Positions 23,164 through 45,093 of a DNA stretch of 64,000 nucleotides are shown here, piece after piece. Source of the stretch: Candidatus Omnitrophota bacterium (GTDB lineage: Bacteria > Omnitrophota > Gorgyraeia > 2-01-FULL-45-10); contig JAGOLR010000001.1 of NCBI GenBank assembly GCA_017993955.1, forward strand, positions 15,876 to 79,875, read 5' to 3'. A program made the position numbers and the translations under genes. The stretch's first letter is position 1. Each line of letters begins with the position of its first letter. Below the pieces are notes generated by a model, which saw only the letters and a program-made list of their open reading frames with translations, ran no database searches and was not told the DNA's origin.

Positions 23164-24537
23164 ATGCAAGAGCATGAGCAATCCATCTGGTCGAGAGCCT
23201 TGGAGTATATAAAGGCAGAACTTAATAACGACCAGACTTATAATGTATGGTTCAGCCCTATAAAATACGTAGGCCTTGCCCAGGACAAGATCACCCTTGA
23301 GGTCCCGAATAAGTTCTTCAAAGTATGGCTTCTCGAGCGGTATATGGACCTGATCAATAATTGTATCGAGAAGTCATCGGGTAAGGAGCTGGGTATAGAG
23401 TTTGTATTGGGCGAGGCCGAAGAAGACGAGGCCATTGGCAAAACAAGGCCTGCCGAACAAAAAAAAGACGCCAGACAGTTCTGGCCTTTCGCAAAACCGG
23501 TATCCGGAGTCGCAAAGGAGATAGGTCTAAACCAGAAGTATACCTTCGAGAGTTTTATCGAGGGGCCGAGCAACAGGTTCGCAAGGGCGGCATCGCTGGC
23601 GGTCTCGGATTCACCGGCCAAAGCCTACAACCCGCTTTTTATCTACGGTGGCGTGGGTCTCGGTAAGACGCATCTTATGCACGCCATCGCCCACCGGGCT
23701 CTGCAACGCTCTCCCAAGACTAAGATTTTATACATCTCCAGTGAGGATTTTACCAACCAATTGATAAGCGCGATACAAAACCGCACAACTCCCGCCTTCA
23801 GGACTAAATATAGAAATGTTGACATCTTACTTATAGACGATATACAATTTATCGCCGGTAAAGAATCTACGCAAGAAGAGTTCTTTCACACATTCAATAC
23901 GCTTTTCGACGCGCATAAGCAGATAGTGGTCTCGAGCGACCGGCCCCCGAAGGAGATCCACCTCCTTGAGGAGCGTCTCGTATCCCGTTTTGAGTGGGGC
24001 CTGGTAACCGATATCCAGCCGCCTGATTTTGAAACGCGCATGGCTATATTAAAGAAGAAGTCCGAGAAGGAAACGATAGCGCTGCCCGAAGATGTTTTTT
24101 ATTTTTTAGCGGAGAAGATCAAGACAAACATACGGGAGCTTGAGGGGGCGCTGATACGGGTGGTGGCTTATGCAAAACTTATAGGTAAAGACGTATCCGT
24201 CGCTTTGGTAAAAGAGGTTTTAAAGGATATGTTGATCGAGGGGGAAAAGAAGATCACTATAGACCTGATACAAAAAAAGGTTAGCGAATATTTTGATATA
24301 AAACTTTCGGATATGCGCGCTAAGAAGCGCTCCAAAACCATAGCTTACCCCAGGCAGATAGCTATGTATCTTGCGCGACAACTTACCGATTTTTCTCTTC
24401 CTGAGATCGGGGATCAGTTCGGCGGGCGCGACCACACTACCGTTATACACGCTTGCGATAAGATAGAGGGTGATTTGAAATCCAAAGAAGGTTTTAAAAA
24501 GATGATTGACAATTTGGTTTTAAGCCTTAAAGGATAG
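23164..24537 (+). CDS. dnaA: Chromosomal replication initiator protein DnaA
   Basis: 457 aa with AAA+ motif GGVGLGKTHLMHAI and the C-terminal DNA-binding domain. Confidence 0.95.
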   Translation: MQEHEQSIWSRALEYIKAELNNDQTYNVWFSPIKYVGLAQDKITLEVPNKFFKVWLLERYMDLINNCIEKSSGKELGIEFVLGEAEEDEAIGKTRPAEQKKDARQFWPFAKPVSGVAKEIGLNQKYTFESFIEGPSNRFARAASLAVSDSPAKAYNPLFIYGGVGLGKTHLMHAIAHRALQRSPKTKILYISSEDFTNQLISAIQNRTTPAFRTKYRNVDILLIDDIQFIAGKESTQEEFFHTFNTLFDAHKQIVVSSDRPPKEIHLLEERLVSRFEWGLVTDIQPPDFETRMAILKKKSEKETIALPEDVFYFLAEKIKTNIRELEGALIRVVAYAKLIGKDVSVALVKEVLKDMLIEGEKKITIDLIQKKVSEYFDIKLSDMRAKKRSKTIAYPRQIAMYLARQLTDFSLPEIGDQFGGRDHTTVIHACDKIEGDLKSKEGFKKMIDNLVLSLKG

Positions 24538-24540
24538 TTT

Positions 24541-24716
24541 TGGTTGTTGGTTTGTTGTGATTTGTGTTGATAAGTTTATGTGGTTTTAAACAATGTGTTT
24601 TATGTTGTATAATATTGCAGTTACGTCGGTTGTGTAGTTATACACATATCCACAGGTATTACTAATATTTCTTCTGTCTTTTAAAAAATAATAGAAACCG
24701 AAGAGGTGTGGACAAA
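24541..24716. promoter_or_regulatory. dnaA-dnaN intergenic region with DnaA-box-like 9-mers and an AT-rich tract (oriC candidate)
   Basis: TTATaCACA at 24638-24646, aTATCCACA at 24646-24654, TGTGGAcAA at 24707-24715. A GT-rich tract lies at 24541-24600 and an AT-rich tract at 24661-24695. Confidence 0.5.
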
Positions 24717-25814
24717 ATGAAATTTAATACAACCAAAGACGTTCTTTTAAAAGGTATACAAAGCGTACAAGCGGCTATAGGGACAAAAGCCAACCTACCG
24801 ATATTATCAAATATATTAATAGAAGGTACGGATGATGAAGTGGTGATGACAACGACAGATCTTGATATAGGTATAGTATCCACAATACCTATAAAACCTT
24901 CGGTAAAAGGAGCCATTACAATACCGGCTAAAAAATTCTCGGATATAATAAAGGAGTTGCCGGAGAAAGAAACGATATCAATATCAGTCAAAAAAAATAA
25001 TCTCGTAAATATAGATTGCGAAAAAAATTCTTTCAAAATAATGGGTTTGCCAAAAGAGGAATTTCCCCAAGTCCCGGCGTTCAAAGACAAAGATTCAATA
25101 ATTCTCCAGCAAAAAACTTTCAAAAAAATGCTCTCAATGACAAACTTTGCCATAAGTCACGATGAGACGCGTTATGTTTTAAACGGCGTGTTGGCGATAA
25201 TCAAACCTTCTTTTATAAGGCTCGTCGCCACAGACGGCAGGAGATTGGCTGTTATAGAAGAGAAGATGCAGCTTCCAAAAACACTGGAGAGAAAGATCAT
25301 AATACCGATAAAAGCGGTCGGCGAACTTCTTAGGGTTTTGGGCGATGAGGGCGACGTCAAAATATACTTTGCCGAGAACCAGGTATTTTTCGACGTCGGA
25401 GCCGTGAGAATAATATCCCGCCTGATCGAAGGCGAATTCCCGAACTACGAGCAAGTTATTCCAAAAGAGATCAAAGATAAGATCGTTTTATCGAGAGACA
25501 AATTTCTGTCCGGCATAAAACGCGTCGCTTTATTTACAAACCCGGATTCTATGGCGGTAAAGATAGACCTCGCTCAAAATAAGATCGTGCTTTCAAAAAA
25601 CACGCCATATCTGGGTGAGGCCCGTGTTGAGCTGGAGGCGGATTATAAAGGCAAGGAACTGTCGGTCGGCTTCAACCCTGACTACCTGGCCGATCTTTTA
25701 AAAAACATTGACGATGAAAAGGTTAATTTTGAGATAGTGGATTCGGAAAAACCGGGAGTGGTGAGGATCGGTTCCGAATATACCTATGTCGTTCTTCCGA
25801 TGCAGATAACATAA
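24717..25814 (+). CDS. dnaN: DNA polymerase III beta subunit (sliding clamp)
   Basis: Starts MKFNTTKDVLLKGIQSVQ. The ORF track begins at a GTG 9 nt upstream. The ATG at 24717 has a GAAGAGG RBS. Confidence 0.9.
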   Translation: MKFNTTKDVLLKGIQSVQAAIGTKANLPILSNILIEGTDDEVVMTTTDLDIGIVSTIPIKPSVKGAITIPAKKFSDIIKELPEKETISISVKKNNLVNIDCEKNSFKIMGLPKEEFPQVPAFKDKDSIILQQKTFKKMLSMTNFAISHDETRYVLNGVLAIIKPSFIRLVATDGRRLAVIEEKMQLPKTLERKIIIPIKAVGELLRVLGDEGDVKIYFAENQVFFDVGAVRIISRLIEGEFPNYEQVIPKEIKDKIVLSRDKFLSGIKRVALFTNPDSMAVKIDLAQNKIVLSKNTPYLGEARVELEADYKGKELSVGFNPDYLADLLKNIDDEKVNFEIVDSEKPGVVRIGSEYTYVVLPMQIT

Positions 25815-25822
25815 ACGCGCAC

Positions 25823-26149
25823 ATGGCCGGCGACACCAACCCCCTCGACAAGATATTAAAAAACGTTATCGAGAAGATGGGGAAGAAGCGGCCCGGCGAA
25901 GAAGAGATAAGCGAGGCTTGGGTCGAAGCCGCGGGGAATGCCGCCGCCCGCCACTCGCGGCCGGTAGCCCTGAAAAAATCGGTGCTGGTGGTAAATGTAG
26001 ACGGGTCAGGCTGGCTTTATCAATTGTCTGTATCCAGGCGCGAGATCTTGGCGCGTTTAGGCGAGCTGATCAAAAAGAAGAAGATAAAAGACATACGTTT
26101 CAGAATAGGGGATATAACGCCCCCTAAAGAGGGCGATAAAAAAACATAA
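25823..26149 (+). CDS. DUF721/DciA-like protein
   Basis: 108 aa. VLVVNVDGSGWLYQLSVSRREILARLGE resembles the DUF721 core. Small DUF721 genes commonly occupy this dnaN-gyrB slot in place of recF. Confidence 0.55.
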   Translation: MAGDTNPLDKILKNVIEKMGKKRPGEEEISEAWVEAAGNAAARHSRPVALKKSVLVVNVDGSGWLYQLSVSRREILARLGELIKKKKIKDIRFRIGDITPPKEGDKKT

Positions 26150-28708
<2,559 letters not shown>

Positions 28709-28822
28709 AATTTGTTTGTTGGGTTTGTTGCGTTTATTGCGTTTGTTGAGTTATTTACATAACACAATAGACCCAAAAACGCAACGAACGCAATGAACTA
28801 ACCTGCAGATTAAGAGGAGACA

Positions 28823-31492
28823 ATGTACACACGCAACGAAAAACTTGTTCCCGTATATATCGAAGAGGAGATGAAAGACTCCTACATCAATTACGCGATG
28901 AGCGTTATTGTAGGAAGGGCGCTTCCGGACGTAAGAGACGGATTGAAGCCCGTGCATCGCAGGATACTCTACGCGATGAAGGAGCTTTCGCTCGAGCACA
29001 ACAAGCCATATAAAAAGAGCGCGCGTATCGTCGGAGAGGTTTTAGGTAAATACCATACGCACGGCGACGTGGCGGTATATGACACGCTTGTCCGCATGGC
29101 CCAGGATTTCTCTCTGCGATATCCGCTTGTGGACGGGCAGGGGAACTTCGGCTCCATAGACGGCGATTCGCCCGCTGCCATGAGGTATACGGAAGCCAGA
29201 CTCGCCCACATCACCGACGAGATGCTTCTCGATATAGAGAAGAACACGGTAGATTTTATGCCGAACTTCGACGGGTCCCTGGAAGAGCCGAAGGTCTTGC
29301 CGGCATGCCTGCCGAACCTTATAGTCAACGGTTCTTCGGGTATCGCCGTCGGCATGGCTACAAACATCCCGCCGCACAATCTTCGCGAGATAGCCAGCGC
29401 TATCATATATATCATAGATAATCCGGAATGCGAATCAAAAGATCTTTTGAAGATAGTCAAGGGCCCAGACTTTCCGACGGGAGGTATCATACGGGGTGTT
29501 GAGGGCATAAGAAACGCATACATAACCGGCCGCGGTATAGTAAGAATAAATGCCAAGGCTTATATAGAGGAACAGAAGAATGGCAAAGAGGCGATATTGA
29601 TAAAAGAGATACCATACATGGTCAATAAGGCCAACCTCATCGCTTCGATAGCCAATCTTGTCACCGATAAAAAGATAGAAGGCATTTCCGACATACGGGA
29701 TGAATCCGATAAAGACGGTATGCGTATAGTCGTGGATCTTAAGCGCGGCTCGAACGCCAATATAATTTTGAACCAGCTCTATAAACACACCCAGATGAAA
29801 GAGACCTTTGGCGTTATTATGCTGGCGCTTGTCGACGGCAGGCCCAAGGTTTTAAGTCTTAAAGAGATATTGGTGGAGTTCATCAAGCATCGCAAGAACG
29901 TCGTTGTCCGCAGGACTCAGCACGATCTGGACAAAGCCCTCGACAGAGCTCATATACTCGAAGGATTAAAGATAGCGCTTTCGAATCTGGACAAGATAAT
30001 AAAGATAATCAAAGAATCGAAGGATCCCCAGATAGCCAAAGCCGAACTCATGAAGAGGTTTGAGCTTTCAGATAGACAGGCGCAAGCGATCCTGGAGATG
30101 CAGCTGCAGCGATTGACCGGCCTGGAGCGCGACAAGATAGAGAAAGAATACCTTGAGCTTATCAAAAAGATCGAGATGTACCGGGCCATCTTGGCAAGCG
30201 AAAAAAAGATCTACGAGATAATAAAGACCGAAACTAAGGAACTTTCCGAAAAATTCGGCGATGACCGCAGGACGGAGATCGCCTTGTCCGAAGACAAAGA
30301 GCTCGCCATAGAAGACCTTATTGCCGAGGAAGACGTTGTGATAACTATAAGCCACGCGGGCTACATAAAGCGTTTGCCGGTATCCGCTTACCGCAAACAG
30401 CGTCGGGGCGGCAAGGGGGTATCCGGGGCCGAGATGAAAGAAGAGGATTTCGTGGAACACCTATTTATAGCTACTACCCACGAGTACATCCTATTCTTTA
30501 CAAATAAAGGCAATGTCCATTGGCTTAAGGTGCACGAGATACCGGAAGCCGGCAGGCTATCTAAGGGCAAAGCCATTATCAATATGGTCCAGCTCTCCCA
30601 GGGTGAGCAGATAAGCGCCTTTGTGCCTGTAAAAGAGTTCAAAGACGGATGTTATCTTATGATGGCTACAAAGAGCGGCACCATCAAGAAGACAACCCTC
30701 TCCGCGTATTCTAACCCAAGACGCGGCGGCATCATAGGCATAGGCCTCGAAGACGGAGACGCACTTATAGATGTAGCTATGACAAACGGCAGCGACGAGA
30801 TACTCCTGGCTACCAAAGAGGGCAAGGCCGTAAGGTTCAAAGAATCCGACGTCAGGGATATGGGCCGGGGTGCCAAGGGAGTGCGCGGCATCAACCTGGG
30901 CAAAAAGGACGTTTGTATAGCTATGGAGATAGTCAAGCCCGATGCTACGGTCCTAACCGTTACGGGTGAAGGCTTTGGCAAAAGGACGCCTTTTAAAGAA
31001 TACCGGCTGCAATCAAGAGGCGGGAAGGGTATAATCAATATAAAAGTCACCGGCAAGAACGGCGAGGCGGTCGGGTTAAAAACAGTCACAGATCGCGATG
31101 AGATAATGCTCATGACCGAAAAGGGCATGGTGGTCAGATCACCCATAAAAGATATACGGACGACCGGTCGCTCCACCCAAGGTGTGCGTCTTATGAAGCT
31201 GGACTCCGGCGATAAGATAGCATCTATAGCCAAGATCGTCCCGGATGACGAAGATGAAAAGACCGAAAACGGAGAAGCCGCGGACAAGGCCAAGACTGTT
31301 ACGCCGGCCGTTAAAGGTTCGTCAACACAGATCAAAGTAGATTCCGAGCCGGTGATTGACGAAGACGCCGAAACGAAGGCAGACGCCCATGCTCTTGCGG
31401 CAGTAGCTATGGCAGCGAAGCAGGAAGATGATAAAGCAGCGAAAGTCAAGCCCAAGACTGCTGCTAAGAAAGCAATAAAGCGCAAGAAATAG
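28823..31492 (+). CDS. gyrA: DNA gyrase subunit A, with Lys/Ala-rich C-terminal tail
   Basis: 889 aa with [28 protein letters not shown], catalytic Tyr and the GyrA-box region. A low-complexity acidic then basic tail extends after about residue 800. Confidence 0.95.
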
Positions 31493-31595
31493 TCATATGC
31501 GTTTATAGTTCATTGTCTATCGTTTATCGTAAAAGACACTATACGATTAACGATTGACGATTAACAAAAACGATGCTATAAGATTACAACACGTC

Positions 31596-31673
31596 GTCCC
31601 CATCGTCTAGTCTGGTCTAGGACATCAGATTTTCATTCTGACGACCCGGGTTCGAATCCCGGTGGGGACGCCA
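31596..31673 (+). tRNA. tRNA-Glu (anticodon UUC)
   Basis: Acceptor GTCCCCA..TGGGGAC, D-arm GTCT-AGTCTGGTCTA-GGAC, anticodon loop TTTTCAT, T-arm CCGGG-TTCGAAT-CCCGG, discriminator G, CCA encoded. Confidence 0.85.
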
Positions 31674-31787
31674 TCCTTCTTCGCCCTTCAACATGCAAAT
31701 AGCGGGTAGGGCTTCGCAGAGATTTTCGGAATCCCAAGGCCCTACGAAGCCATACCTAATATTTTATGTTGATTGGCGAAGTAGACC

Positions 31788-31804
31788 GGTTGGGGACGCC
31801 ATCT
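31788..31804 (+). repeat. Direct repeat of the tRNA-Glu 3' end (GGT-TGGGGACGCCATC), att-site-like
   Basis: A 12-nt exact match (GGGGACGCCATC) plus flanking GGT to tRNA-Glu positions 31660-31675, located about 115 nt downstream of the tRNA. Confidence 0.6.
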
Positions 31805-31945
31805 TAACTATAGTGTTTTCAAGCAGTTGTGCTATGTTTTCCAGTAATGGTTACTAAGAGGGAAATCACGTATTTTATGGCCTGATGGTCCCTATATGGT
31901 CCCCGGAATTATGATGGCTCGATGCACAAATATATAGTTTTAATA

Positions 31946-31972
31946 GGCAACCCAAAAAGGGTTGCTTTTTTA
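31946..31972 (+). terminator. Rho-independent terminator
   Basis: GGCAACCC-aaaaa-GGGTTGC followed by TTTTTT. Confidence 0.7.
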
Positions 31973-32006
31973 TTGCACAAAATCAGCGAGATAGAGAGCT
32001 GGGATT

Positions 32007-32720
32007 ATGCTTACACAAAAGCGTAGCAATAAAGGGGGCTATAGAAATTTTTTTGCGAAATATGAGCATATCTGTGAGAAAAAACGCATAAGTCACTATG
32101 CTCAAATTCATTCATTGATTGATTCGTATGCATATCGGTCTAAAATGTTTTGTAAGTCTAACAAAGTCCTCGCACCTAATTTTAATCCCTTTGAATTACT
32201 CTGTATAACCGACGACGAAAGAAAGCATAGCGCAATTCTGGCATGGTTATTCGATCCTTTGGGTAGCCATGGACAAGGTAATATATTTTTTAAAACGTTT
32301 CTCTCATATTTTGACTATGATGCTAAGTTTGCCACCGAAGACTATAAATCTACGACAGAATTCTGCGTTAAGGAGTCGATCATAGATATTTTGATTTATG
32401 GGAGCCGATTTATTTTTTGGGTTGAAAATAAGACCTTCTCACAGGAGGGGCATGACCAGACTAATCGAGAATATCGCGACCTATTAGGATTTTCAAAAAA
32501 ACTTAATATACAAAAAAATATTTTCCCAATATATCTATCTTTATCAGGGGAAAGACCCCAAAATAAAGAATGGCGGCCAATTGCATATCGAGAGCTAGCA
32601 AAGGCTCTCGAGACAGTCATAGAGGATGTTCGATGTGTTTATGTGCAGCATTTTGTGAGATCGTGGATAGTGGTTTTGCAAAAACTGCGAGAAGAAGACA
32701 CGATAGGAGATGAAATATGA
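32007..32720 (+). CDS. Hypothetical protein with PD-(D/E)xK-like nuclease motifs (island gene 1)
   Basis: 237 aa. ITDDERKHSAILAWLFDP ... IIDILIY ... FWVENK gives a D...ExK arrangement typical of restriction-endonuclease-fold proteins. No family confidently recognised. Confidence 0.5.
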   Translation: MLTQKRSNKGGYRNFFAKYEHICEKKRISHYAQIHSLIDSYAYRSKMFCKSNKVLAPNFNPFELLCITDDERKHSAILAWLFDPLGSHGQGNIFFKTFLSYFDYDAKFATEDYKSTTEFCVKESIIDILIYGSRFIFWVENKTFSQEGHDQTNREYRDLLGFSKKLNIQKNIFPIYLSLSGERPQNKEWRPIAYRELAKALETVIEDVRCVYVQHFVRSWIVVLQKLREEDTIGDEI

Positions 32721-33283
32721 GTTCTATTTTTTCCGAGGAAAGCAAATTTCTTGTTTCTAGGTGGCAGACCGTAGAGAAGCTCGACAAAGATATACAGACG
32801 CTCAGATACGAGTTTACGCAGTATTTGGATAGCGTCAGGAAAATATTAAAAAAACGAAACTGGTGGGGTGACGATTTAATATTTGAGCAGTATAGACAAG
32901 AAGGGATTTATATTGCGCGAAAGAGTTGGTTTATCCGAAAAAACGATAGATACCCGGCCATATGGATAGGGGTTGAAGAGTTTAAGCCGGAAAGCATGTT
33001 TGGGTTGGGTGAGCCAGCCGATTGTTATTTATGGGTGTTTGGAAAAATGCTTGGGAAGAAGGCCGATACGGTACGTAATGATTTAACGCGTATAAGCGAA
33101 AAGAATCGGGGGCTAAAAAAATATATATACGGCAAAGAAAATAACCAAATTCTTTATAAACCACTGCCAAAGTATTTTAATAGGGAATATAAAGCATTTA
33201 TCGCGGGCGAACCCTTAAGGGACGCTGCCGATTTTATAGAACGAACATATTTGGCGATTAGAAAATATAAGATAAAGAAATGA
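32717..33283 (+). CDS. Hypothetical protein (island gene 2)
   Basis: 188 aa, basic, with no recognisable motif. Its start overlaps the upstream stop (ATGA). Confidence 0.4.
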   Translation: MSSIFSEESKFLVSRWQTVEKLDKDIQTLRYEFTQYLDSVRKILKKRNWWGDDLIFEQYRQEGIYIARKSWFIRKNDRYPAIWIGVEEFKPESMFGLGEPADCYLWVFGKMLGKKADTVRNDLTRISEKNRGLKKYIYGKENNQILYKPLPKYFNREYKAFIAGEPLRDAADFIERTYLAIRKYKIKK

Positions 33284-34365
33284 CCGAGGCATTCCCGAGC
33301 GGCATACAGGCATTTATTGAATCCGTCCAGTGGACATATGCCAAAACATATGCTACCACGTGGCCGCATTGGTATATTGTTAGAAAGAATGTCGACGAGA
33401 AGATGTTTGTTAGGCTTGTTGAGCATATAAGGGCTCATGGTTACGATGGGAAATTTTATAAACAGACGAACAAGTATATCGACGATGATAAATATAGTTA
33501 TTGGACCATGGGGGCTCCGATAGATGAGACCGAGGTTATTAACCGTTGCTTAAAAGAAGATACATATGAACGACGGCTGGCGAAAGGGACGTTGCCGAAG
33601 CAAGGAAAGACAGACGAGCCTGAGCCTGTGTACCAGGTTGATACATATTTCGATTTTCGGCTGGATGCGCATGGGAAAGATCCGGATACTCATAGCCCCG
33701 CCTTGAGGAGCTGCCACAAATTGCTCTGGAGTAAACCTCTCCCAGGCGGAAAGCTCTTTGAGTTGGTCGAGCGTGGAGCCTACCTATATTACAAATCGGA
33801 AGTCAAAGAATTCTGTCTGTCGAGCGATGCAGTGATTCCAACATTTAGATGGAATGATAAGATCCAAAACATCATCGCAGAGATTCCCGATGAGTTTGAT
33901 CGGTTCAGTGCTATTGGTTATACGATCGGTGGAATGATGGTGTTCCCGGCGCTAAAAGTAGGGAGAAAATGGACGATCAATCAAGCTCGCGGATGTCACC
34001 CCCGGATTAAAGATCGATTTGATCTCACGGTCGAGTGCATTCGGCGGTATTATTTACCTCTACCGGATCAAAAACGTAGCCCTCTGCTTGAAGTCTTGGC
34101 GCGCTATGACGATTTTTTTAACCTGTTTAAAGATTTTCGCGGATACGTCAAATTCTTTCTTTTGCAAGACATCGTCAATGACGAATGCACAGAGGTACAG
34201 TTTTTCGCGCCGTTCGATGATTTTAAGACATCACCGCTCCCCCAAAGCAAAGAGGCATACGAAAGATACATGAAGAAAGCCATTGAATTTATCGAAGCGC
34301 GAAACAAAAGAATCAGAGAATATCGCGATTGGTGTAAGCAGTCGGAAATTTCGGGGAGGAATTAA
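33280..34365 (+). CDS. Hypothetical protein (island gene 3); N-terminal region with tentative YDG/SRA-like motif
   Basis: 361 aa. TWPHWYIVRK ... RAHGYDGKFYKQTNKYIDDDKYSYWTMG loosely recalls the GGY.DD....F.YTG.GG signature of the SRA (YDG) base-flipping domain. Its start overlaps the upstream stop. Confidence 0.4.
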   Translation: MTEAFPSGIQAFIESVQWTYAKTYATTWPHWYIVRKNVDEKMFVRLVEHIRAHGYDGKFYKQTNKYIDDDKYSYWTMGAPIDETEVINRCLKEDTYERRLAKGTLPKQGKTDEPEPVYQVDTYFDFRLDAHGKDPDTHSPALRSCHKLLWSKPLPGGKLFELVERGAYLYYKSEVKEFCLSSDAVIPTFRWNDKIQNIIAEIPDEFDRFSAIGYTIGGMMVFPALKVGRKWTINQARGCHPRIKDRFDLTVECIRRYYLPLPDQKRSPLLEVLARYDDFFNLFKDFRGYVKFFLLQDIVNDECTEVQFFAPFDDFKTSPLPQSKEAYERYMKKAIEFIEARNKRIREYRDWCKQSEISGRN

Positions 34366-34368
34366 GTT

Positions 34369-35331
34369 ATGAAGCTGTTCAGGGCGCTAGACGATGATTT
34401 CATGGCGGATCTTTCAGGGGGGAAATTAAATTATATATTACAATTTGAAAGAGACTACAGGAAATCGCTCATCGTTGAAATTAGGGATAATTATTTGGAG
34501 CTGTATTTTTTGGGGCATGCGATAAAAGTTACACGGGACAAACAAGCGCGGTATTGTCTATCCGCTTCGACAACGTTCGACCCTTGCCGTGCTTCATGTA
34601 ATGAATTTAAGGACATTGTTACACGGGCAGGTTCCGGACGATGGAAGGTATATTTTAACGATATAAACGATTACGACCAGTTTTACCGTCTTATGAGAAC
34701 GGTTATTGCTGAAATAGTGATCCGCAAGGAGGGTGATATATCCGAAGGCGTTAGCGAGCTTAATCATCATGCAGATAACATGGCAATCGGAAAGAACGGC
34801 ATACTTGTTATCGACAAGCAGGTCGTATATCCCGGCATAAGGAAAAATAGAATCGATCTTTTGGGGGTTAGAAGGCTTCCCGGTAAAAAAGATCTGTTTA
34901 CATTTTCAGTCATTGAATTAAAAAATAAGAATAATCCCCAGATTGGGGAGGTTTTTACTCAAACTCGACGCTATATAGATCTTATATACGATAAGAGGGA
35001 AATCTATGAGGACTTTAGAAGTACCTACGCGACAGTTATACGTCAAAAAATCGAGTTAGGATTGATCAAGCGGATCAGATGCAATATTGCGCCCTGGGAT
35101 GCAATATCAAAGCAAGATATCGCAGGCCTAGTAATTCTCGACAATTTTAATATGAGAAGGGATCTCCAAGAGAACGGGCTGATGCAAAGAGCCCTGCGCG
35201 ATTGGAAGCAAATACCAAAAATCTATAACATAAAATTTTTCATGAAGACAAATGTCCTTGATGACACATTCTTTTTAGGATATCAGGATGCGTTAAAGCT
35301 ATACGCAGAATATCGAAGATGCAACTCATAA
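34369..35331 (+). CDS. Hypothetical protein with PD-(D/E)xK-like nuclease motif (island gene 4)
   Basis: 320 aa. ILVIDKQ ... RIDLLGV ... FSVIELKNK gives a D...ExK signature. Unknown N-terminal domain. Confidence 0.45.
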   Translation: MKLFRALDDDFMADLSGGKLNYILQFERDYRKSLIVEIRDNYLELYFLGHAIKVTRDKQARYCLSASTTFDPCRASCNEFKDIVTRAGSGRWKVYFNDINDYDQFYRLMRTVIAEIVIRKEGDISEGVSELNHHADNMAIGKNGILVIDKQVVYPGIRKNRIDLLGVRRLPGKKDLFTFSVIELKNKNNPQIGEVFTQTRRYIDLIYDKREIYEDFRSTYATVIRQKIELGLIKRIRCNIAPWDAISKQDIAGLVILDNFNMRRDLQENGLMQRALRDWKQIPKIYNIKFFMKTNVLDDTFFLGYQDALKLYAEYRRCNS

Positions 35332-36611
35332 TTCATCGCGGCACACATAATATAGGCGGGACATGCGTTGAGATTGCCACTGCGCAGTCCCGCATTATTA
35401 TTGACCTTGGCATGCCTCTCGAAGAGAATGGAGAGCGGTTTGATATTAGGAAATATAAACACCTTTCCGAGCCGGATCTGGTCAAGGAGGGCAAGCTACC
35501 CGATGTCAAAGGCCTCTATAAATGGGATACAGAATCAAAGAGAATCGACGCTATCCTTATTTCCCACTCCCATCAGGACCATTACGGCTATCTCTCCTAT
35601 GTAAATCCTGCTATCCCGATCTATGCGAGCGAGGGATGCAAAGAGCTCATGGCCGTTGCGTACTATTTCGGGCAGAGCAGATTTGATCCCGCAAACGTGA
35701 TCGTGAAGAAGCCGTGGGATACCTTTAAGGATATTGCGGGAATGGAAGTGACGCCATATCTGGTTGATCACTCGGCGGCCGATGCGTTTGCATATCTAAT
35801 CGAGGCAGATAAAAAGCGGATATTTTATGCGGGAGATTTCCGGGGGCATGGCAAAAAGAAGATCCTCTTTGAGAACATGCTTAAGCACCCACCAAAAAAC
35901 ATAGATCTTTTAATGCTTGAGGGGACCACCATTGAGGCAGCAAGAGTGGAGGAGCAGGCTTCCGAGCAGGACGTGGAAGAAAAGCTGGTGAGCTTGTTCG
36001 GCGAAAACAACAAGCTCGTTATATTCGCATGCTCTCATCAGAACATCGATCGATTAACAGTTCTTTATAATGCTTGCTTAAGGACCGATAAGACGCTGGC
36101 GATGATCCCATACACAGCATATATACTGCACAAGTTGAAGATACTTTCAGATAAGATTCCGCAGCATAGTATGAAAAACATTCGTGTTTTCTTCGAAGGC
36201 ACGCCGAATACGAAACGAGTTCTGGCAGACGAAGAACTTTGCGAAAAGCTCAGGAGGGTATATATCGGCTACGACGAGATCGTAGCCCATAAAGAGCGCA
36301 TGGTGGTGCTCGATTCCACATTTGTAAGGAAGCAGTTCGGAAGGCGTGGATATCTGAAAGATGCGATGCTGATATATTCGCTTTGGGACGGATACCTTGA
36401 AGATGTGAAACCATTCTGGGATGATCACGGCGTTCATATCAAAAAATTACATTCAAGCGGCCATGCGAGCGTAGACGAATTAAAACAATTTGTGAGTGCC
36501 CTTAAGCCGGCGCGTATTATTCCTATACACACCAAGCATCCGGAAAAATTTCACGAGCATTTTGGTGATATAGTGATGAAGGTTTCAGATGGAGAGCGGG
36601 TAAATTTGTGA
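35319..36611 (+). CDS. Metallo-beta-lactamase-fold beta-CASP-type nuclease (RNase J/CPSF-like) (island gene 5)
   Basis: 430 aa. The N-terminal G-rich segment (HRGTHNIGGTCVEI) and the HSHQDH, DHS and GDF motifs match the MBL fold. SSGHAS and PIHTKHPE match beta-CASP motifs B and C. It overlaps the upstream gene by 13 nt. Confidence 0.6.
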   Translation: MQLIIHRGTHNIGGTCVEIATAQSRIIIDLGMPLEENGERFDIRKYKHLSEPDLVKEGKLPDVKGLYKWDTESKRIDAILISHSHQDHYGYLSYVNPAIPIYASEGCKELMAVAYYFGQSRFDPANVIVKKPWDTFKDIAGMEVTPYLVDHSAADAFAYLIEADKKRIFYAGDFRGHGKKKILFENMLKHPPKNIDLLMLEGTTIEAARVEEQASEQDVEEKLVSLFGENNKLVIFACSHQNIDRLTVLYNACLRTDKTLAMIPYTAYILHKLKILSDKIPQHSMKNIRVFFEGTPNTKRVLADEELCEKLRRVYIGYDEIVAHKERMVVLDSTFVRKQFGRRGYLKDAMLIYSLWDGYLEDVKPFWDDHGVHIKKLHSSGHASVDELKQFVSALKPARIIPIHTKHPEKFHEHFGDIVMKVSDGERVNL

Positions 36612-36843
36612 TGGGGACTTATCGGCCGAGGCGCAAAGGTGGCATGGTGAAGCGGCACTCAGAGCGTAATTTTTTCAACGAACAAGGAAAAGATTATTGT
36701 TTCCTTGAGAAGGTATCCGGCGGCGGTCTGTTTTTCATAGAAAACAAGCGCAGTGTAAGAATGGCAATTTACAGAATTCTGTTGATGTAGCCAAATCTTA
36801 ATCCGTCTTTTTCGAGCAGGATAAATGTAGTATAATAATAGAT

Positions 36844-37536
36844 ATGAAAGAGACCATTCTTATCGTAGAGGACGAAAAAGATATAGTCAAAATGCTTGAC
36901 TATAATCTTAAGAAGGAGGGGTTCAGGACCTTATCTGTCCGCAATGGCGAAGACGCGGTAGATTTGGCCAAAAAGGAAAGGCCGGACATGATCGTTTTGG
37001 ATCTGATGCTTCCCGGGATCGACGGACTGGAAGTCTGTAAACGATTAAAGAAAGACGGGAAAACCGCGTCAATCCCTATCATAATGTTGACCGCGAAGAG
37101 CCAGGAGTCGGATAAGATAGTAGGGCTTGAATTAGGCGCCGACGACTATATGACCAAGCCTTTTAGCCCGAGAGAGTTGATAGCGCGGATCAAAGCGGTT
37201 TTGCGCCGCGGCAAAGAAAGGGTTGAAGAGGCCGGCATTATAAAGACAGGCGGTTTAAATTTAGACTTGGACAAGATCGCGGTCACCGTTAAGGGTAAGG
37301 CCGTCGAACTCACCTCAAAGGAATTCGAACTTCTTAAGACACTGATGCAATCAAGGGGCAGAGTCTTATCCAGGGACTATCTTTTGGATACAATATGGGG
37401 CTTCGAGCAATCCTCGGAGATCCAAACCAGGACCGTAGATGTGCATATAAGAACATTGCGCAAAAAGTTAAAAAGCGAATCGGAACGCATCGTCACAGTT
37501 AAAAATTACGGGTATAGATTCGACGACGGAGATTAG
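36844..37536 (+). CDS. phoB: OmpR/PhoB-family response regulator
   Basis: REC domain (ILIVEDEKDIV...DLMLPGIDGL) plus winged-helix trans_reg_C. It lies upstream of a sensor kinase and the pst operon. Confidence 0.8.
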   Translation: MKETILIVEDEKDIVKMLDYNLKKEGFRTLSVRNGEDAVDLAKKERPDMIVLDLMLPGIDGLEVCKRLKKDGKTASIPIIMLTAKSQESDKIVGLELGADDYMTKPFSPRELIARIKAVLRRGKERVEEAGIIKTGGLNLDLDKIAVTVKGKAVELTSKEFELLKTLMQSRGRVLSRDYLLDTIWGFEQSSEIQTRTVDVHIRTLRKKLKSESERIVTVKNYGYRFDDGD

Positions 37537-37543
37537 GTGATAG

Positions 37544-39325
37544 ATGAGGAGAAAAAGAAGCTTTAAGTCAAACCTGATCCTCTCGTATATTTTTATAATA
37601 TCGGTATCTTTCGGCTTCATAGCGTTCTTTCTGGATAAAACCCTGGAAGAAAATTCCCTCCGCAATATCAAAGACTCTCTCATAACGCAAGCCCATTTAA
37701 TGGAAAATCAGATTACTTCCGTTACTTTAAAAAAAGAAGACCCCGCCTCTCTGGATATTTTAGCGAAAAAGTTAGGCGCAAAAACGCAATGCCGCATTAC
37801 CGTTATTGACAGAAAAGGGGCGGTTCTTGCGGATTCCGGGAAATCCAAAGAAGAGATCCTCCTTATGGAGAATCATATCAATCGCCAGGAGGTGCGGTCG
37901 GCTTTAGCCGGGGATATAGGTATCGATATACGGTATTCTCCGACCTTGAAGATCGACATGCTGTATGTTGCCCTGGCGATTAAAGACGAAGGGAAGATCG
38001 ACGGTATTTTAAGGCTGGCTCTGCCTCTCGAGATCGTACAAAAAACCTTATTTGCCATCAGAAAGACAGTAGCCATCGGGCTCATTTTCGCCGTAGCCCT
38101 GGCCTTTCTCTTAGGTTCGATAGTCGCGGCCAATACGATAAGGCCGATCAACAGAATGATCCAGATCTCGCGCCGGTTCGCCGAAGGCGATTTTACGCGC
38201 AGGATAATCCAAAGCCCTGAAGACGAGATCGGGGAACTCGCGGAGACCCTGAATAAAATGGCTCAAGACATAGAGGACAAGATAAAGGAGATCCAAACGC
38301 AGCATCAGAAGCTTACGGCTATTTTTAACAGTATGGTCGAAGGAGTGATAGTTTTAGATAGGAACGCCCATATAGTTTCGGTAAACCATACTATCGAGAA
38401 GATATTCAATATTACGAAAAAAGACGTTCAAGGAAAACCATTTTTAGAAGCGGTGCGAAACAACGATATCGCGGATGTCGTGACTTCTGTTTTGGGAAAA
38501 GGGCAGGGCCGGTCGGCAGAGCTGGAGCTTGTCTACCCGGTGCGCAGGATATTCGAGGTTAGCGCAACCCCCATCTTTGATAATAATAATGTAACGGGTT
38601 CTTTGGTGGTTATCCATGATATAACCCAGATAAGAAGGCTTGAGACGATGCGCAGTGATTTTATAGCCAATGTATCTCATGAGTTAAAGACGCCGCTTAC
38701 TTCTATAAAGGGTTTTATCGAGACGCTCCTCGAAGGAGCCATGGATGATAAAGAAAATAACCGCAACTTTCTTGCGATAATCCAAGACCATGCGGAAAGG
38801 CTCGACACCTTGGTGAGCGACCTCCTTTCCTTGTCGCATCTGGAATCAAAAGAAATCTCTCTCGAGAAGGAAGCTGTAAACTTAAACCGTCTTGTCGAAA
38901 GAGTGGCGCTGGGATTCGAGTCTCAGCTTCGCGGGAAGGCCATAGAGATCAAAAACGAATTAGAGGGTGAACTTTTTGTCAAGGCAGATAAACACAGATT
39001 GGAGCAGGTTTTTACTAACCTTATCGATAATGGGATAAAGTTCAATAAGAATAAGGGATCTATTAAAATTTACTGCCATGACTCAAAAGATAAAGTAAAA
39101 ATTTTTGTAGAAGACTCCGGTATCGGCATCCCGGCAAAAGACATCCCGCGCATTTTTGAGAGGTTTTACCGGGTTGACAAAGCTCGCTCGCGCGAACTCG
39201 GCGGGACGGGCCTCGGCCTATCCATCGTCAAACATATCGTCGAGCTGCACGGCGGTAGCGTAGGCGTAGAAAGCGTCGAAAATTCCGGGTCGAAATTCTG
39301 GTTAACCCTGCCAAAGTCTCATTAA
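37544..39325 (+). CDS. phoR: Sensor histidine kinase (PhoR-like; TM-sensor-HAMP-PAS-HisKA-HATPase)
   Basis: 593 aa. H-box SHELKTPLTSIKG, and G-boxes DSGIGIP and GGTGLGLSIV. Confidence 0.8.
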   Translation: MRRKRSFKSNLILSYIFIISVSFGFIAFFLDKTLEENSLRNIKDSLITQAHLMENQITSVTLKKEDPASLDILAKKLGAKTQCRITVIDRKGAVLADSGKSKEEILLMENHINRQEVRSALAGDIGIDIRYSPTLKIDMLYVALAIKDEGKIDGILRLALPLEIVQKTLFAIRKTVAIGLIFAVALAFLLGSIVAANTIRPINRMIQISRRFAEGDFTRRIIQSPEDEIGELAETLNKMAQDIEDKIKEIQTQHQKLTAIFNSMVEGVIVLDRNAHIVSVNHTIEKIFNITKKDVQGKPFLEAVRNNDIADVVTSVLGKGQGRSAELELVYPVRRIFEVSATPIFDNNNVTGSLVVIHDITQIRRLETMRSDFIANVSHELKTPLTSIKGFIETLLEGAMDDKENNRNFLAIIQDHAERLDTLVSDLLSLSHLESKEISLEKEAVNLNRLVERVALGFESQLRGKAIEIKNELEGELFVKADKHRLEQVFTNLIDNGIKFNKNKGSIKIYCHDSKDKVKIFVEDSGIGIPAKDIPRIFERFYRVDKARSRELGGTGLGLSIVKHIVELHGGSVGVESVENSGSKFWLTLPKSH

Positions 39326-39376
39326 CCCCAACACAAATACTTTACCTGCATTTTACCTGCCCTTGAAGCGCATTTA

Positions 39377-40084
39377 ATGTCGATGGTCTATACTCTTTTC
39401 CGTAAAAGAAAGGAGGAGGACATGCTCAAAAACATCATTAAGTCGGTATTGGTATTGTTTTTGGTGACCTTCGGCTTTAAGGCGCATGCCTATGATGACG
39501 GTGATTTCCAGATCTGGCACACGCAGAACCAGGAGGTGGCGATCGGTAAAGGTACAAAGCTGGTACAGGAAGAGGAGTGGCGTTTTGGCGAAAATGCCAG
39601 CGAGTTTTACTATCAGCATTACGACTGGGGCGCAGTGTACGGATTTGATAAAAGGCTTGATATAGGTCTACACTACCGTCAAGTCTACGAAAAGAACAAA
39701 AAGAAATGGAGGGAGGAGAACAGGCCTCACGTAAACGCGACTTTAAAGTTCGATTTATGGGGGCTGAAGCTCGACGACAGGAATCGTATCGAATACAGGC
39801 ATTTCAGATACAAGAACGATTTCATAAGGTATCGTAATAGATTAACTATAAAATATCCTTTTGATTTCAAAGGTATAAAAGTATCGCCTTACCTTTCGGA
39901 CGAGATCTTTATCTCCTCTAACTCCACAGGGTTCAACGAAAACAGGTTTTATGCGGGTGCGGAATGCGGGCTTACAAAATACGTAAAATTCGACATATAT
40001 TATCTTCTTAAGGAAAATAAGCTTAAAGATTCCAAGTGGTCCTCCGCAAACGTCCTGGGGACGAAGGTCAAGATCATCTTTTGA
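39377..40084 (+). CDS. DUF2490-like outer-membrane protein (start more likely MLKNIIKSV at 39422)
   Basis: Signal peptide plus a beta-rich sequence ending in F. DUF2490 genes frequently accompany pst operons. Confidence 0.45.
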   Translation: MSMVYTLFRKRKEEDMLKNIIKSVLVLFLVTFGFKAHAYDDGDFQIWHTQNQEVAIGKGTKLVQEEEWRFGENASEFYYQHYDWGAVYGFDKRLDIGLHYRQVYEKNKKKWREENRPHVNATLKFDLWGLKLDDRNRIEYRHFRYKNDFIRYRNRLTIKYPFDFKGIKVSPYLSDEIFISSNSTGFNENRFYAGAECGLTKYVKFDIYYLLKENKLKDSKWSSANVLGTKVKIIF

Positions 40085-40168
40085 TATTTTACATGGATTT
40101 AACATTGTCTTAATATGCCCATAACATATTTAAAGTATAATCCAAGTTAATAGAAATGGAGGAAAGGC

Positions 40169-41026
40169 ATGCACAGGATATTGTTATCGATATTTATTAT
40201 AAGCGCGTTTTTTTCTACCTCGGCAATCGCTGCGAAGAACGAAAATTCAATACAGATCAAAGGCTCTGACACTATGGTGAATCTTGGCCAGGCATGGGCT
40301 GAAATATTTATGGGAAAGAACCCTTCAGAATTTGTTGCCGTCACAGGAGGCGGTTCCGGTACCGGATTTTCAAGCCTCATAAGCGGCACTTGCGATATAG
40401 CTATGAGCTCACGAAATATAAAAGAAAAAGAGATTGCCCTGGCCCAGAAGAAGGGTGTAAATCCGTATGAGATAAAGATCGCTCTGGACGGATTGGCGGT
40501 AGTGGTGCATCCCAAAAATCCCTTAGACAAGCTCACCATGGACCAGTTGGCAGGGGTGTTTACAGGGAAGATAAAGAACTGGAGAGAGCTGGGCGGTAAT
40601 AATGAGAAGATAGTTATATTATCACGCGAGGTAAACTCCGGGACGCATGTCTATTTTAAGGAGCATGTTTTGAGGAAGATGGATCCTAATAACACGGAAG
40701 AGTTTGCGCCAGGCGCTCTCATGCTCTCTTCTTCACAGGCCATAGCCGATGAGGTTGCGGCCAACCCCGCTGCCATAGGTTATTACGGCATGGGATATAT
40801 CTCTCCAAAACAGAAAGCCGTTGCTGTGGCAAAGGATGAAACATCCGAATTTGTTATGCCGTCTATAGCGAATGTGCTGAACGGAAGCTATCCCATATCG
40901 CGTCCTCTTTTCATTTACACAAACGGAGAGCCGTCGGGGTTAACTAAAAAATTCATAGACTTTACACTCTCCAAAGAAGGCCAGGACCTTGTGTCCGCTA
41001 CGGATTTCGTGCCGATCAAAGAGTAG
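40169..41026 (+). CDS. pstS: Phosphate ABC transporter substrate-binding protein
   Basis: 285 aa with a signal peptide and the PBP fold (GSDTM, TGGGSGTG). Confidence 0.85.
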   Translation: MHRILLSIFIISAFFSTSAIAAKNENSIQIKGSDTMVNLGQAWAEIFMGKNPSEFVAVTGGGSGTGFSSLISGTCDIAMSSRNIKEKEIALAQKKGVNPYEIKIALDGLAVVVHPKNPLDKLTMDQLAGVFTGKIKNWRELGGNNEKIVILSREVNSGTHVYFKEHVLRKMDPNNTEEFAPGALMLSSSQAIADEVAANPAAIGYYGMGYISPKQKAVAVAKDETSEFVMPSIANVLNGSYPISRPLFIYTNGEPSGLTKKFIDFTLSKEGQDLVSATDFVPIKE

Positions 41027-41032
41027 GGGGTT

Positions 41033-42744: not shown

Positions 42745-43484
42745 AAATAGAGGTTCACAAACTTAATGCCTGGTTTGGCGCCGCACATGTTTTAAAGAAT
42801 GTGGAGATGGAGATCCCCGCGCATGAGATATTAAGTGTGATCGGACCGTCGAATAGCGGCAAGACCACCTTCTTAAGGACGCTTAACCGTCTTAATGACC
42901 TTAACCCGCATTTCAAAATAGACGGGATGGTAGAGCTCGATATGGAGGATATCAGATCAATCGATATCGAGGCGCTGCGCAGGAAGATAGGCATGGTGTT
43001 TGCGCTTCCGCTACCCCTTCCCTTATCCATATTTGACAATGTCGCGTATGGCGTAAGGATGCATGGAGAAAAGAACGGCAAAAAGATTGCCGCTAAAGTA
43101 GAAGAGGCCCTCAAGCAGGGGTCTCTATGGGAAGAGGTCAAGGATAGGCTGGGGGAATCGGCGTTCAAGCTCTCCGGAGGGCAGCAACAGCGTCTGTGCA
43201 TTGCCCGGACGCTTGCCGTTGAACCGGAGGTGATACTTTTTGACGAACCCTGTTCGGGGCTCGATCCCATATCGACAGCTAAAGTAGAGGACGCAATGGT
43301 CCAGCTTAAAGACAGATACACGCTAGTTCTGGTCACCAACAATGTGAAGCAGGCAGCGCGGGTCGGGGACAAGACGGCGTTCTTCCTGAGCGGCGAACTC
43401 GTAGAACTGGATAAAACGGAAAAGATCTTTACCGCGCCTCACGATAAGCGCACAGATGGTTATATAAGGGGAAAATTCGGATAA
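42738..43484 (+). CDS. pstB: Phosphate import ATP-binding protein PstB (copy 1)
   Basis: Walker [10 protein letters not shown], signature LSGGQQQRL, Walker B ILFDEP. Confidence 0.85.
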
Positions 43485-44239: not shown

Positions 44240-44341
44240 TATTATCTATAGCCTAAATTTTTAAGCATTTTTACGCAAATCGTTGCAAAGTTTGGACGAT
44301 AATTTGCGCGCTGAAGATCATATCAAACCAGGAGGCCCAGG

Positions 44342-45010: not shown

Positions 45011-45093
45011 ATCTACCGGAAGGTGATCCGGAGAGACCCTCTCCTCCAAACGTTATTTGCCGATAAGCCCATTATGTGCTATCCTCTTAATCT

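Follow-up and report, generated by a model that had tools for sequence, protein, structure and literature searches.

Genomic setting of the tRNA-Glu locus

The window, by which we mean the whole 64,000-nucleotide stretch of DNA that was analysed, comes from the chromosome of Candidatus Omnitrophota bacterium and surrounds the replication origin. Pfam assignments place dnaA at 23164-24537, followed by dnaN, dciA, gyrB and gyrA (28823-31492), and the cumulative GC skew reaches its minimum at approximately 23-24 kb of the window. In one-genome-per-species data, the closest relatives by GyrA are Omnitrophota MAGs with 79-84% identity. Behind gyrA stands a tRNA-Glu gene, and some 40 Omnitrophota loci share this gene order. 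The tRNA gene and the features that follow it directly are:

31596-31673, + strand: tRNA-Glu(UUC) with encoded CCA (ARAGORN; Rfam tRNA, 62.7 bits)
31658-31675, + strand: repeat copy 1, CCCGGTGGGGACGCCATC, tRNA nt 61-76 (CCCGG TGGGGAC G CCA) plus TC
31675-31722, + strand: hairpin unit A (covariance model R1, 54.8 bits; a unit of the training set)
31723-31738, no strand: 16-nt spacer between units A and A′, from the R1 unit boundaries
31739-31785, − strand: inverted hairpin unit A′ (R1, 53 bits; inverted repeats I2/I3)
31786-31803, + strand: repeat copy 2, CCGGTTGGGGACGCCATC, partial tRNA-Glu 3′ end (CCGGT TGGGGAC G CCA) plus TC
31945-31967, + strand: first intrinsic-terminator-like site 3′ of the tRNA-Glu doublet and copy 2

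Direct repeat of the tRNA-Glu 3′ end

Copy 1 of the repeat lies at the end of the tRNA gene and comprises the 3′ strand of the T-stem (nt 61-65), the 3′ strand of the acceptor stem, the discriminator G and CCA, followed by TC. The T-arm of the resident gene reads CCGGG/TTCGAAT/CCCGG, with a coherent CCGGG/CCCGG pair, and its gene sequence is a perfect palindrome, ACCCGGGTTCGAA/TTCGAATCCCGGT in the window (inverted repeat I9). Over 18 nt the two copies agree at 16 positions when aligned without a gap and at 17 when one indel is allowed, and the exact block common to both is TGGGGACGCCATC (13 nt). Their starts are 128 nt apart, with 110 nt between the copies (31676-31785). The first-pass annotation had noticed the repetition and assigned the second copy to 31785-31804; the repeat is present as described, and its actual limits, 31786-31803, lie one base further in at each end.

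The repeated tRNA-Glu 3′ end is real. Its occurrence is far beyond chance: the 12-mer GGGGACGCCATC at up to one mismatch is found in the 64 kb only at these two sites (0.29 expected), the 18-mer at up to three mismatches likewise only there (0.03 expected), and two matches to the 18-mer were reached in none of 100 shuffles. Furthermore, the Logan contig L081 (SRR11088414) is identical base for base to window positions 31617-32898, and this agreement with an independent assembly indicates that the repeat is not a one-off misassembly. Searches with the 12-mer, the 18-mer and a 23-mer tRNA end at up to three mismatches showed no third copy anywhere in the 64-kb window, including the region after 36.6 kb, where a search for further copies had been suggested.

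Hairpin doublets behind two tRNA genes

The 110-nt insert between the copies contains no ORF. It is a nested imperfect palindrome made of two inverted units of about 47 nt, which fold together into one long hairpin (−52.2 kcal/mol; z = −4.66). Read in order, each unit consists of Y-CTNC / TTC / variable stem-loop / TTC / GNAG-R. When 20 units drawn from many loci were aligned, 90.8% of the cells were paired, as compared with 81.8% after shuffling and at most 55% with slid partners. Compensatory changes are seen at unit pair 4-48, which is GC in nine units and AU in eight, the outer stem of the unit alternating between CTAC/GTAG and CTGC/GCAG, and at unit pair 12-38, which is CG in 10, AU in six and GC in one; the inner stem likewise has compensatory pairs.

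The covariance model R1, which was built from this 20-unit alignment, detects four units in the 64 kb of the window and no more. They make up two doublets, one behind tRNA-Glu and the other behind tRNA-Val, and by R1 each doublet begins 1 nt past the CCA of its tRNA. The features of the second locus are:

62139-62213, + strand: tRNA-Val(UAC), which hosts the second doublet (ARAGORN)
62215-62332: second doublet, with unit (+) at 62215-62261 and unit (−) at 62286-62332 (R1)

In the second doublet, R1 scores the (+) unit at 54.7 bits and the (−) unit, which did not belong to the training set, at 23.9 bits (E = 7e-5). No copy of the tRNA-Val end follows this doublet. Over 113 nt, the tRNA-Glu doublet shares 79.6% identity with a doublet in the metagenomic contig L084. 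In the region 31400-32100, only the tRNA exceeded the Rfam threshold, all other matches being far below the gathering score, and Rfam searches with the inserts of three relatives (L003, L010, L066) identified no ribozyme, intron or sRNA family.

Occupied and empty sites in relatives

In most Omnitrophota loci, other sequence follows tRNA-Glu and usually leads into glmS or a nagA-like gene. The repeat is missing in most of these relatives, which speaks for the insertion-linked duplication assumed in the first-pass annotation and not for a conserved tRNA trailer. When applied to 1.3 Mb of gyrA-centred loci, R1 gave 11 unit matches, all in Omnitrophota (L004, L011, L013, L016, L039, L066). A metagenome scan for a tRNA end followed by a unit start returned 41 loci, about half of them real; the pattern by which these loci (L082-L122) were fished biases them for the left junction and not for what follows it. 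Units are found alone, in doublets or triplets, and on either side of an ORF. Among viral contigs, there were no matches to a unit end followed by the 16-nt copy.

Empty and occupied sites, which the first-pass annotation had proposed to locate in related genomes, were found as the pair L015 and L088. In the empty locus L015, the tRNA is followed directly by TGTACCACTCGCG. In the occupied locus L088, the tRNA is followed by TT, the element (a 166-nt unit array), A, the tRNA-end copy CCCCATGGGGACGCCA and then TGTACCACTCGCG. The two loci have identical tRNA and downstream sequences and differ exactly by the unit array and the 16-nt copy. Because L015 is empty where L088 is occupied, we conclude that the element together with its copy constitutes an insertion. 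A fixed short target duplication was rejected as a rule, since it fits only L004 (ATAAC), L104 (CCATC) and L011 (CCATC/CCATT, four of five positions). For the window, a hypothetical empty-site junction would read ...GGGGACGCCATCTTAACTATAG joined straight to the tRNA T-arm, and a hypothetical circle or tandem junction would consist of copy 2 and then CTTCTTCGCC.

A GIY-YIG gene as coding partner of the units

In the relative L016, an 86-aa ORF stands between the two inverted units behind tRNA-Glu and corresponds to a GIY-YIG domain (PF01541), and in L090, L109 and L105 a GIY-YIG ORF comes after the first unit. For a bias-free test, we carried out a protein search with the GIY-YIG protein, which gave 62 homologues with approximately 50-70% identity to the query, and took nine contigs from these by length alone, with no unit or tRNA criterion. 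The results showed that units adjoin the GIY-YIG gene in all nine contigs, on both sides of it in seven and as a doublet shortly before it in two. Immediately upstream, seven of the nine contigs have an intact tRNA and the remaining two a tRNA 3′ end:

L123: intact tRNA-Asp upstream
L125: intact tRNA-Ser-GGA upstream
L126: intact tRNA-Glu-CUC upstream
L127: intact tRNA-Ser-GGA upstream
L130: intact tRNA-Ser-GCU upstream
L133: intact tRNA-Leu-CAA upstream
L137: intact tRNA-Tyr upstream
L136: contig edge starting with a tRNA-like 3′ end, ...CCGCTCCA
L139: partial tRNA end on both sides

The full-length element measures approximately 370-420 bp and consists of the tRNA 3′ end, 0-3 nt, a unit (+), the GIY-YIG gene and a unit (−); the ORF (approximately 240-310 bp) occupies the position that the 16-nt spacer has in the window. 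The encoded proteins are 80-102 aa long and belong to PF01541; their nearest solved structures are the SLX1 structure-specific endonuclease and UPF0213, and NCBIfam has no name for them. R1 matches both the units of the window and the units that flank the GIY-YIG gene in L016, L123, L125, L126, L127, L130, L133 and L139. No RAYT gene was seen in the GIY-YIG loci, the unit-flanked gene being GIY-YIG in nine of nine contexts.

In the 64-kb window, tblastn detected no GIY-YIG homologue; weak matches at 2209-2346 were rejected as AT-rich noise in translation, with no gene remnant. The window is therefore tied to the GIY-YIG gene by unit homology only. Because the same units adjoin a GIY-YIG gene in all nine contigs, the two doublets of the window are, judged by their sequences, ORF-less miniatures of the GIY-YIG element family.

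The partial tRNA copy at the right end

Approximately 40% of the family members examined carry a partial tRNA copy at the right end, 13-19 nt long where present. All copies (those of the window, L084, L088, L089, L091, L123, L126, L127, L130 and L139) start at nt 61, which is the first base of the 3′ strand of the T-stem whichever tRNA is concerned, and in L084, L088, L089 and L091 the junction is always GNAG-R and then nt 61. The copies outside the window are:

L088 and L091: CCCCATGGGGACGCCA, 16 nt, the same as in the local tRNA-Glu
L084: CCGGATGGGGACGCCA, 16 nt
L089: CCGGTTGGGGACGCCA, 16 nt
L123: CTCGTCGACCCCG(CCA)
L126: CCCCGTGGGGCTGC(CCA)
L130: CCCGACCTCTCCGCCATT
L127: CCCGACCTCTCCGCC
L139: CCCGTCGTACCCGCC

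In related elements, copies that start at nt 61 were found for five tRNAs (Asp, Glu-CUC, Ser-GCU, Glu-UUC and one more). The same left boundary across tRNA species argues for a structural landmark of the target and against an att sequence that was captured once; a repeat boundary specific to one tRNA in each element lineage, as homology carried by the element would set, is not what is seen here. No right-end copy is present in L016, L125, L133, L136, L137 or the tRNA-Val doublet of the window. As the copy is missing in more than half of the members, the duplication is not an obligatory product of insertion.

A comparison of two contigs shows how a copy and its resident tRNA can differ. L127, behind tRNA-Ser-GGA, and L130, behind tRNA-Ser-GCU, have a mean column identity of 94% over the whole alignment, flanks included; the identity spans the sequence from CCA-TT to the last base of copy 2, with unrelated sequence beyond. 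The copy in L127 has a T-stem of the GCU type and not that of the local GGA gene. This pair shows that the partial copy can be carried along when the element moves behind another tRNA gene.

The same may apply to the window, where copies 1 and 2 match only across the last 13 nt and differ in the T-stem strand. The CCGGT of copy 2 differs from the resident tRNA, and it is a real tRNA-Glu T-stem allele of L006, L011, L028, L036 and L048. Carry-over of the copy with the element would explain this foreign allele, and we infer that copy 2 was either imported with the doublet or is the fossil of an older T-stem allele; a single 1-nt indel is a less likely source of the mismatch. Among these lineages the T-stem is highly variable. 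A difference in the T-stem between the two copies of the window is not what simple target duplication would predict.

Interpretation of the insert and alternative explanations

We regard it as probable that the 110-nt insert represents a miniature form, non-autonomous and without an ORF, of a family of mobile elements whose place is directly behind tRNA genes, copy 2 being the right-end appendage typical of the family. The idea of a mobile-DNA scar at the tRNA 3′ end, as put forward in the first-pass annotation, is retained here, whereas the integrase as its agent and the link to an island are not. In particular, a large integrase island that decayed or was excised does not account for an insert that is a complete, precisely bounded hairpin doublet with a GIY-YIG partner. 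An excised integrase element leaves one att site, not two. Since two copies are present where one att site would be expected after excision, the insert is not an excision scar.

An unlikely reading, although the strongest of those that compete with the miniature, is that the doublet and its repeat form a cis-mobilizable remnant or an attP-like mini-circle that depends on a recombinase in trans. Here the copies would be attL and attR with the interior lost, and a tyrosine or serine recombinase would be responsible, which is essentially what the first-pass annotation had suggested. Direct repeats of a tRNA 3′ end next to an intact tRNA are the classical signature of integrases, and the insert has the tRNA-3′-end repeat at both borders with an intact tRNA at one. 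Integrase elements and prophages do use this tRNA-Glu end in other contigs: in L084, genes for an HTH_17 excisionase-like protein and a Phage_integrase adjoin a partial tRNA-Glu copy, which is followed by the doublet and a second 16-nt copy, and in L118 a 16-nt partial copy is preceded by a phage portal gene, as would fit the end of an integrated prophage. Because the L118 copy ends an apparent prophage, an integrase could conceivably act in trans on a module of doublet plus copy. The allele mismatch between copies, in the window as well as in L127, would also fit an attP copy carried by the element, and both the CIME concept (PMC5704250) and tandem accretion (PMC3146451) are documented.

However, neither an integrase nor a remnant of one was found in the window, by Pfam on the 20 ORFs at 23164-46590, none of which is a recombinase, or by tblastn with the L084 integrase as query. 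The arm of the L084 integrase element contains no units, and the constant partner gene of the units in nine of nine contexts is GIY-YIG and not a recombinase. Furthermore, an att site borne by the element would need repeated identical captures to give nt-61 copies for five tRNAs, and independent deletions would not yield the same GNAG-R/nt 61 junction in at least five lineages.

We consider it improbable, more so than an att scar, that the hairpins, and perhaps copy 2, are a host RNA that serves in the 3′ processing, stability or termination of the tRNA transcript. In both loci the doublet lies between the tRNA and the first terminator-like site (31945-31967 behind tRNA-Glu and 62340-62379 behind tRNA-Val), and in the preferred reading, too, the doublets are therefore probably just co-transcribed as a 3′ trailer. 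The unit stem is conserved and covarying, and units stand behind many tRNAs in several lineages. Such covariation is equally expected for a DNA hairpin that is recognised by a nuclease, and most relatives have no units behind tRNA-Glu. The existence of the empty and occupied pair L015/L088 and the variation in unit number (single, doublet, triplet) argue against a functional trailer, which would also leave the ORF-bearing forms unexplained; in addition, no Rfam family is matched. As an intrinsic terminator, the tRNA-Glu doublet was rejected because no T run follows it and the terminator-like site lies further on, and copy 2 was rejected as a tRNA-like minihelix or pairing partner within the trailer because it is mostly unpaired in the fold.

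We assign a very low probability to a tandem insertion, in which copy 2 would be the left att site of an island further downstream (31.8-36.6 or 31.8-46.5 kb). The features of this region are:

31804-46500, + strand: extra stretch of approximately 14.7 kb, absent in relatives, with no further repeat that bounds it
32007-36611: low-GC, defence-like five-gene cluster
46502-47680: nagA-like gene
47754-49613: glmS
49638-50300: rsmI

In relatives, the order is tRNA-Glu, a nagA-like gene in some cases, glmS and rsmI. As these genes follow only from 46502 in the window, approximately 14.7 kb are extra relative to the relatives, and this extra region reaches approximately 46.5 kb and not 36.6 kb. The absence of this stretch from relatives, the low-GC defence-like cluster with which it begins, and the fact that tRNA-proximal tandem islands are known (PMC3146451) would favour an island. 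The cluster encodes a PD-(D/E)XK protein resembling the PADLOC candidate PDC-S26, an unknown protein, a DUF6994 protein, another unknown protein and an MBL/RMMBL protein; the rest of the stretch contains phoB, phoR, a DUF2490 gene, pstSCAB-phoU and the gene for an HD-domain (HD_5) protein with a HAMP domain. Against this stand the lack of an integrase and of a third repeat (at up to three mismatches) in the 64 kb, which also removes the ground for the island by tandem insertion at the same att site that had been suggested earlier. The intergenic region 36612-36843 contains nothing tRNA-like (sequence 36560-36860, inspected by eye), and the junction of doublet and copy occurs in L084, L088, L089 and L091 without this island. 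When the island and the pho genes were searched by tblastn against 80 relatives, no shared island was found, and in these relatives none of the genes lies beside tRNA-Glu. The repeat is not a border of the defence/pho region that lies downstream.

Similarity by chance, or a duplication by local slippage with no element involved, which the shortness and imperfection of the repeat might suggest, deserves practically no credence and is effectively refuted by the expected count of 0.03 per 64 kb and by a junction that recurs in at least five independent lineages, the second assembly being identical as well. A primer-binding site, for which the minus strand would be complementary to the tRNA 3′ end, was dropped because no reverse transcriptase is present anywhere, and an integron attC-like or Xer/dif-like site was set aside for lack of a recombinase and of a matching core.

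Proposed mechanism

For the preferred reading, a miniature of a mobile element family, the observations above cover the architecture of the element, its strict position behind tRNA genes, the insertion polymorphism, the boundary at nt 61, the carry-over of the copy and a minimal SLX1-like nuclease as the sole gene. How such an element might move can be outlined as follows. The GIY-YIG nuclease, being of the structure-specific type and having no DNA-binding domain, would recognise folded DNA, candidate substrates being the hairpins of the element itself and the T-arm palindrome in the tRNA gene. The target would be broken at the junction of T-loop and T-stem and just 3′ of CCA, positions suggested only by the boundaries of the repeat. 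After repair with the element as template or insert, the left side would keep an intact tRNA and the right side would carry a second copy of nt 61-76. The short copy could then act as right-hand homology for entry into other tRNA genes that share the last 11-13 nt, and this homology may help the element to enter other genomes, in which nothing but the tRNA is conserved. For the doublet in the window to move now, a GIY-YIG copy at another site of the genome would have to act in trans.

More tentatively, and with clearly less confidence than in the miniature itself, it is possible that the bare nuclease of approximately 80 aa and SLX1/UPF0213 type, bracketed by two inverted hairpin units, represents an undescribed class of prokaryotic mobile DNA. 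Such an element would read DNA structure and not sequence (its own hairpins and the T-arm palindrome of any tRNA gene), insert straight behind tRNA genes, copy nt 61-76 as a portable homology arm on its right and spawn gene-less doublets of REPIN/MITE kind, among them the two in the window. A literature search of limited coverage returned no paper on GIY-YIG hairpin elements at tRNA flanks in bacteria, and the family is apparently undescribed.

Comparison with known systems

As in tRNA-associated islands and prophages, a repeat of the tRNA 3′ end flanks the inserted DNA, the tRNA remains intact and the copy may be of another allele. Here, however, an integrase is lacking, a 110-nt hairpin forms the insert, the sole gene of the family is GIY-YIG and the repeat starts at nt 61 whichever tRNA is involved. 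Islands that integrate at tRNA or tmRNA genes include the tandem ssrA islands of Dehalococcoides (PMC3146451). Like CIMEs (PMC5704250), the insert is non-autonomous, has two att-like repeats at a tRNA end and would depend on functions in trans for its mobility. CIMEs, which derive from ICEs or IMEs by decay, are kilobases in size and arbitrary in content, in contrast to the precisely bounded and conserved pair of inverted hairpins in the window.

Like a MITE, the insert is small and non-coding, has terminal inverted repeats common with a longer coding element, and is flanked by a direct repeat. Unlike in MITEs, there is no DDE transposase, and the repeat is 13-19 nt long, is delimited by structure and accompanies only about half of the copies; the window element lacks a fixed-length target-site duplication of the kind made by a DDE transposase. 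REP and REPIN elements reportedly go together with RAYT (HUH Y1) transposase genes, work ascribed to Nunvar in 2010 and to Bertels and Rainey in 2011. REPINs are short imperfect palindromes arranged as inverted doublets that form hairpins of about 100 nt, with a gene flanked by units and derivatives without the gene. The units of the window are likewise imperfect palindromes in inverted doublets that form a long hairpin. The differences are that the gene is GIY-YIG and not HUH, that the elements stand strictly behind tRNA genes, often with duplication of the tRNA end, and that the copy number is very low, with two doublets in 64 kb, a count for the window only and not for the whole genome.

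The T4 endonuclease SegB is a site-specific GIY-YIG enzyme encoded in a phage tRNA gene cluster, and it causes preferential inheritance and segmental amplification (PMC2330249; PMC13096335). The likeness is that a GIY-YIG gene lies beside tRNA genes and that breaks in tRNA regions lead to a bias in inheritance and to local duplication, so that SegB may, by analogy, be a precedent for nuclease-driven duplication at tRNA loci. Unlike SegB, the proteins described here are bare catalytic domains of 80-102 aa, found in bacterial chromosomes and bracketed by hairpin units. Compared with GIY-YIG homing elements, the nuclease gene lies inside the element in the full-length relatives and not in the window. 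Homing, in which the nuclease would cut the unoccupied target allele and repair would copy the element in, has indirect evidence in the L015/L088 pair and in the fixed boundary at nt 61. The doublet of the window relates to the GIY-YIG element as a MITE to its transposon, or a REPIN to its RAYT gene.

Implications

For annotation, the finding means that a partial tRNA 3′ end about a hundred bases behind a tRNA gene need not be the border of an island. Where contigs of Omnitrophota MAGs break at tRNA-Glu, the element family may also be the reason. If the proposed mechanism is true, it would explain the small genes of the "GIY-YIG nuclease family" that lie beside tRNA genes in uncultivated phyla and whose role is obscure. 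Bacterial DNA is known to be mobilised by integrases, by DDE and HUH transposases and by classical homing endonucleases; if the mechanism holds, a new class of enzyme would join them in the form of a minimal GIY-YIG nuclease that is structure-specific.

Chromosomal setting of the tRNA-Glu locus

The replication-origin neighbourhood occupies positions 23164-31492 of the window, where dnaA, dnaN, dciA, gyrB and gyrA all run in one direction, and the cumulative GC-skew minimum falls at about 23-24 kb. The spacer between gyrA and tRNA-Glu contains, at 31503-31570, an imperfect inverted repeat of 29 nt in which ACGATT(A/G)AC motifs recur; several relatives have a GIY-YIG gene within this spacer. 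On the other side of tRNA-Glu, about 14.7 kb (31804-46500) is not present at this position in any relative compared, the order in the relatives being tRNA-Glu followed by nagA-like/glmS/rsmI. This region opens with a low-GC cluster of five genes, encoding a PD-(D/E)XK protein that resembles PADLOC PDC-S26, DUF6994, an MBL/RMMBL protein and two unknown proteins, and the entire phoBR-pstSCAB-phoU regulon also lies within it. Four of the metagenome-assembled contigs (L003, L010, L012 and L025) end at tRNA-Glu or no more than about 350 nt past it, which fits assemblies broken by repeats or strain variation at the locus.

Further copies and variants of the hairpin unit

A second doublet of the same hairpin family, that is, two inverted units, is located in the window immediately 3' of tRNA-Val(UAC), and the tRNA end is not duplicated there. 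The trailer of tRNA-Cys, which starts ATCTGCTTTCGCG and ends GGCTGCGAAGATAAT, is reminiscent in its sequence of a degenerate unit; it gave no match to the covariance model of the unit in the scan of the 64-kb window.

Window 62215-62332: second hairpin doublet, 3' of tRNA-Val(UAC)
Window 14230-14328, minus strand: tRNA-Cys trailer

Variant units were also observed in the loci used for comparison. At L108 (709-922), only the first 12 nt of the unit (TTCTGCTTCGCC) are found between tRNA-Arg and tRNA-Pro, and a full unit is present 3' of tRNA-Pro, so that tRNA-Pro lies between the two copies of a 15-nt direct repeat, CCATTCTGCTTCGCC. Behind tRNA-Glu of L085 (8493-8507, minus strand) lies a collapsed unit, CTGCTTCGCAGGAA, which looks as if the inner hairpin had gone from between two TTCG repeats and which may be a footprint.

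At L084 (71-1561), two ORFs, one an excisionase-like HTH_17 ORF and the other a Phage_integrase ORF, directly adjoin a 19-nt partial copy of tRNA-Glu; after this copy come a doublet and then a second copy, this one of 16 nt, with the motif GGTGAAACTTGG at both outer sides. The doublet looks as if it had been inserted where tandem integrase elements meet.

GIY-YIG genes and split tRNA genes

Three successive small GIY-YIG genes surround tRNA-Leu and tRNA-Glu(CUC) in L126 (585-1752), a contig carrying a GIY-YIG homologue, and units flank only the last of the three. In seven relatives, fragments of tRNA-Glu occur upstream of the intact gene.

Loci with tRNA-Glu fragments
L003 12679-13350
L010 12539-13317
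L016 12517-12988
L017 6502-6896
L019 12441-12996
L091 6363-6785
L025 12012-12219

These fragments are broken at nt 12/13 and within the anticodon by small CCCGCC...GGCGGG hairpin inserts, except in L003, where a different hairpin pair breaks them. They are followed by a different GIY-YIG ORF and then by the intact tRNA-Glu; in L003, L010 and L019 the intact gene is followed in turn by the corresponding 3' fragments, which carry the same insert. The resulting arrangement is A-B-A, in which B comprises GIY-YIG and a tRNA-Glu without the insert; the T-arm allele of the intact tRNA-Glu in L003 differs from that of the fragments. The arrangement looks like a nuclease cassette that carries its own replacement tRNA.
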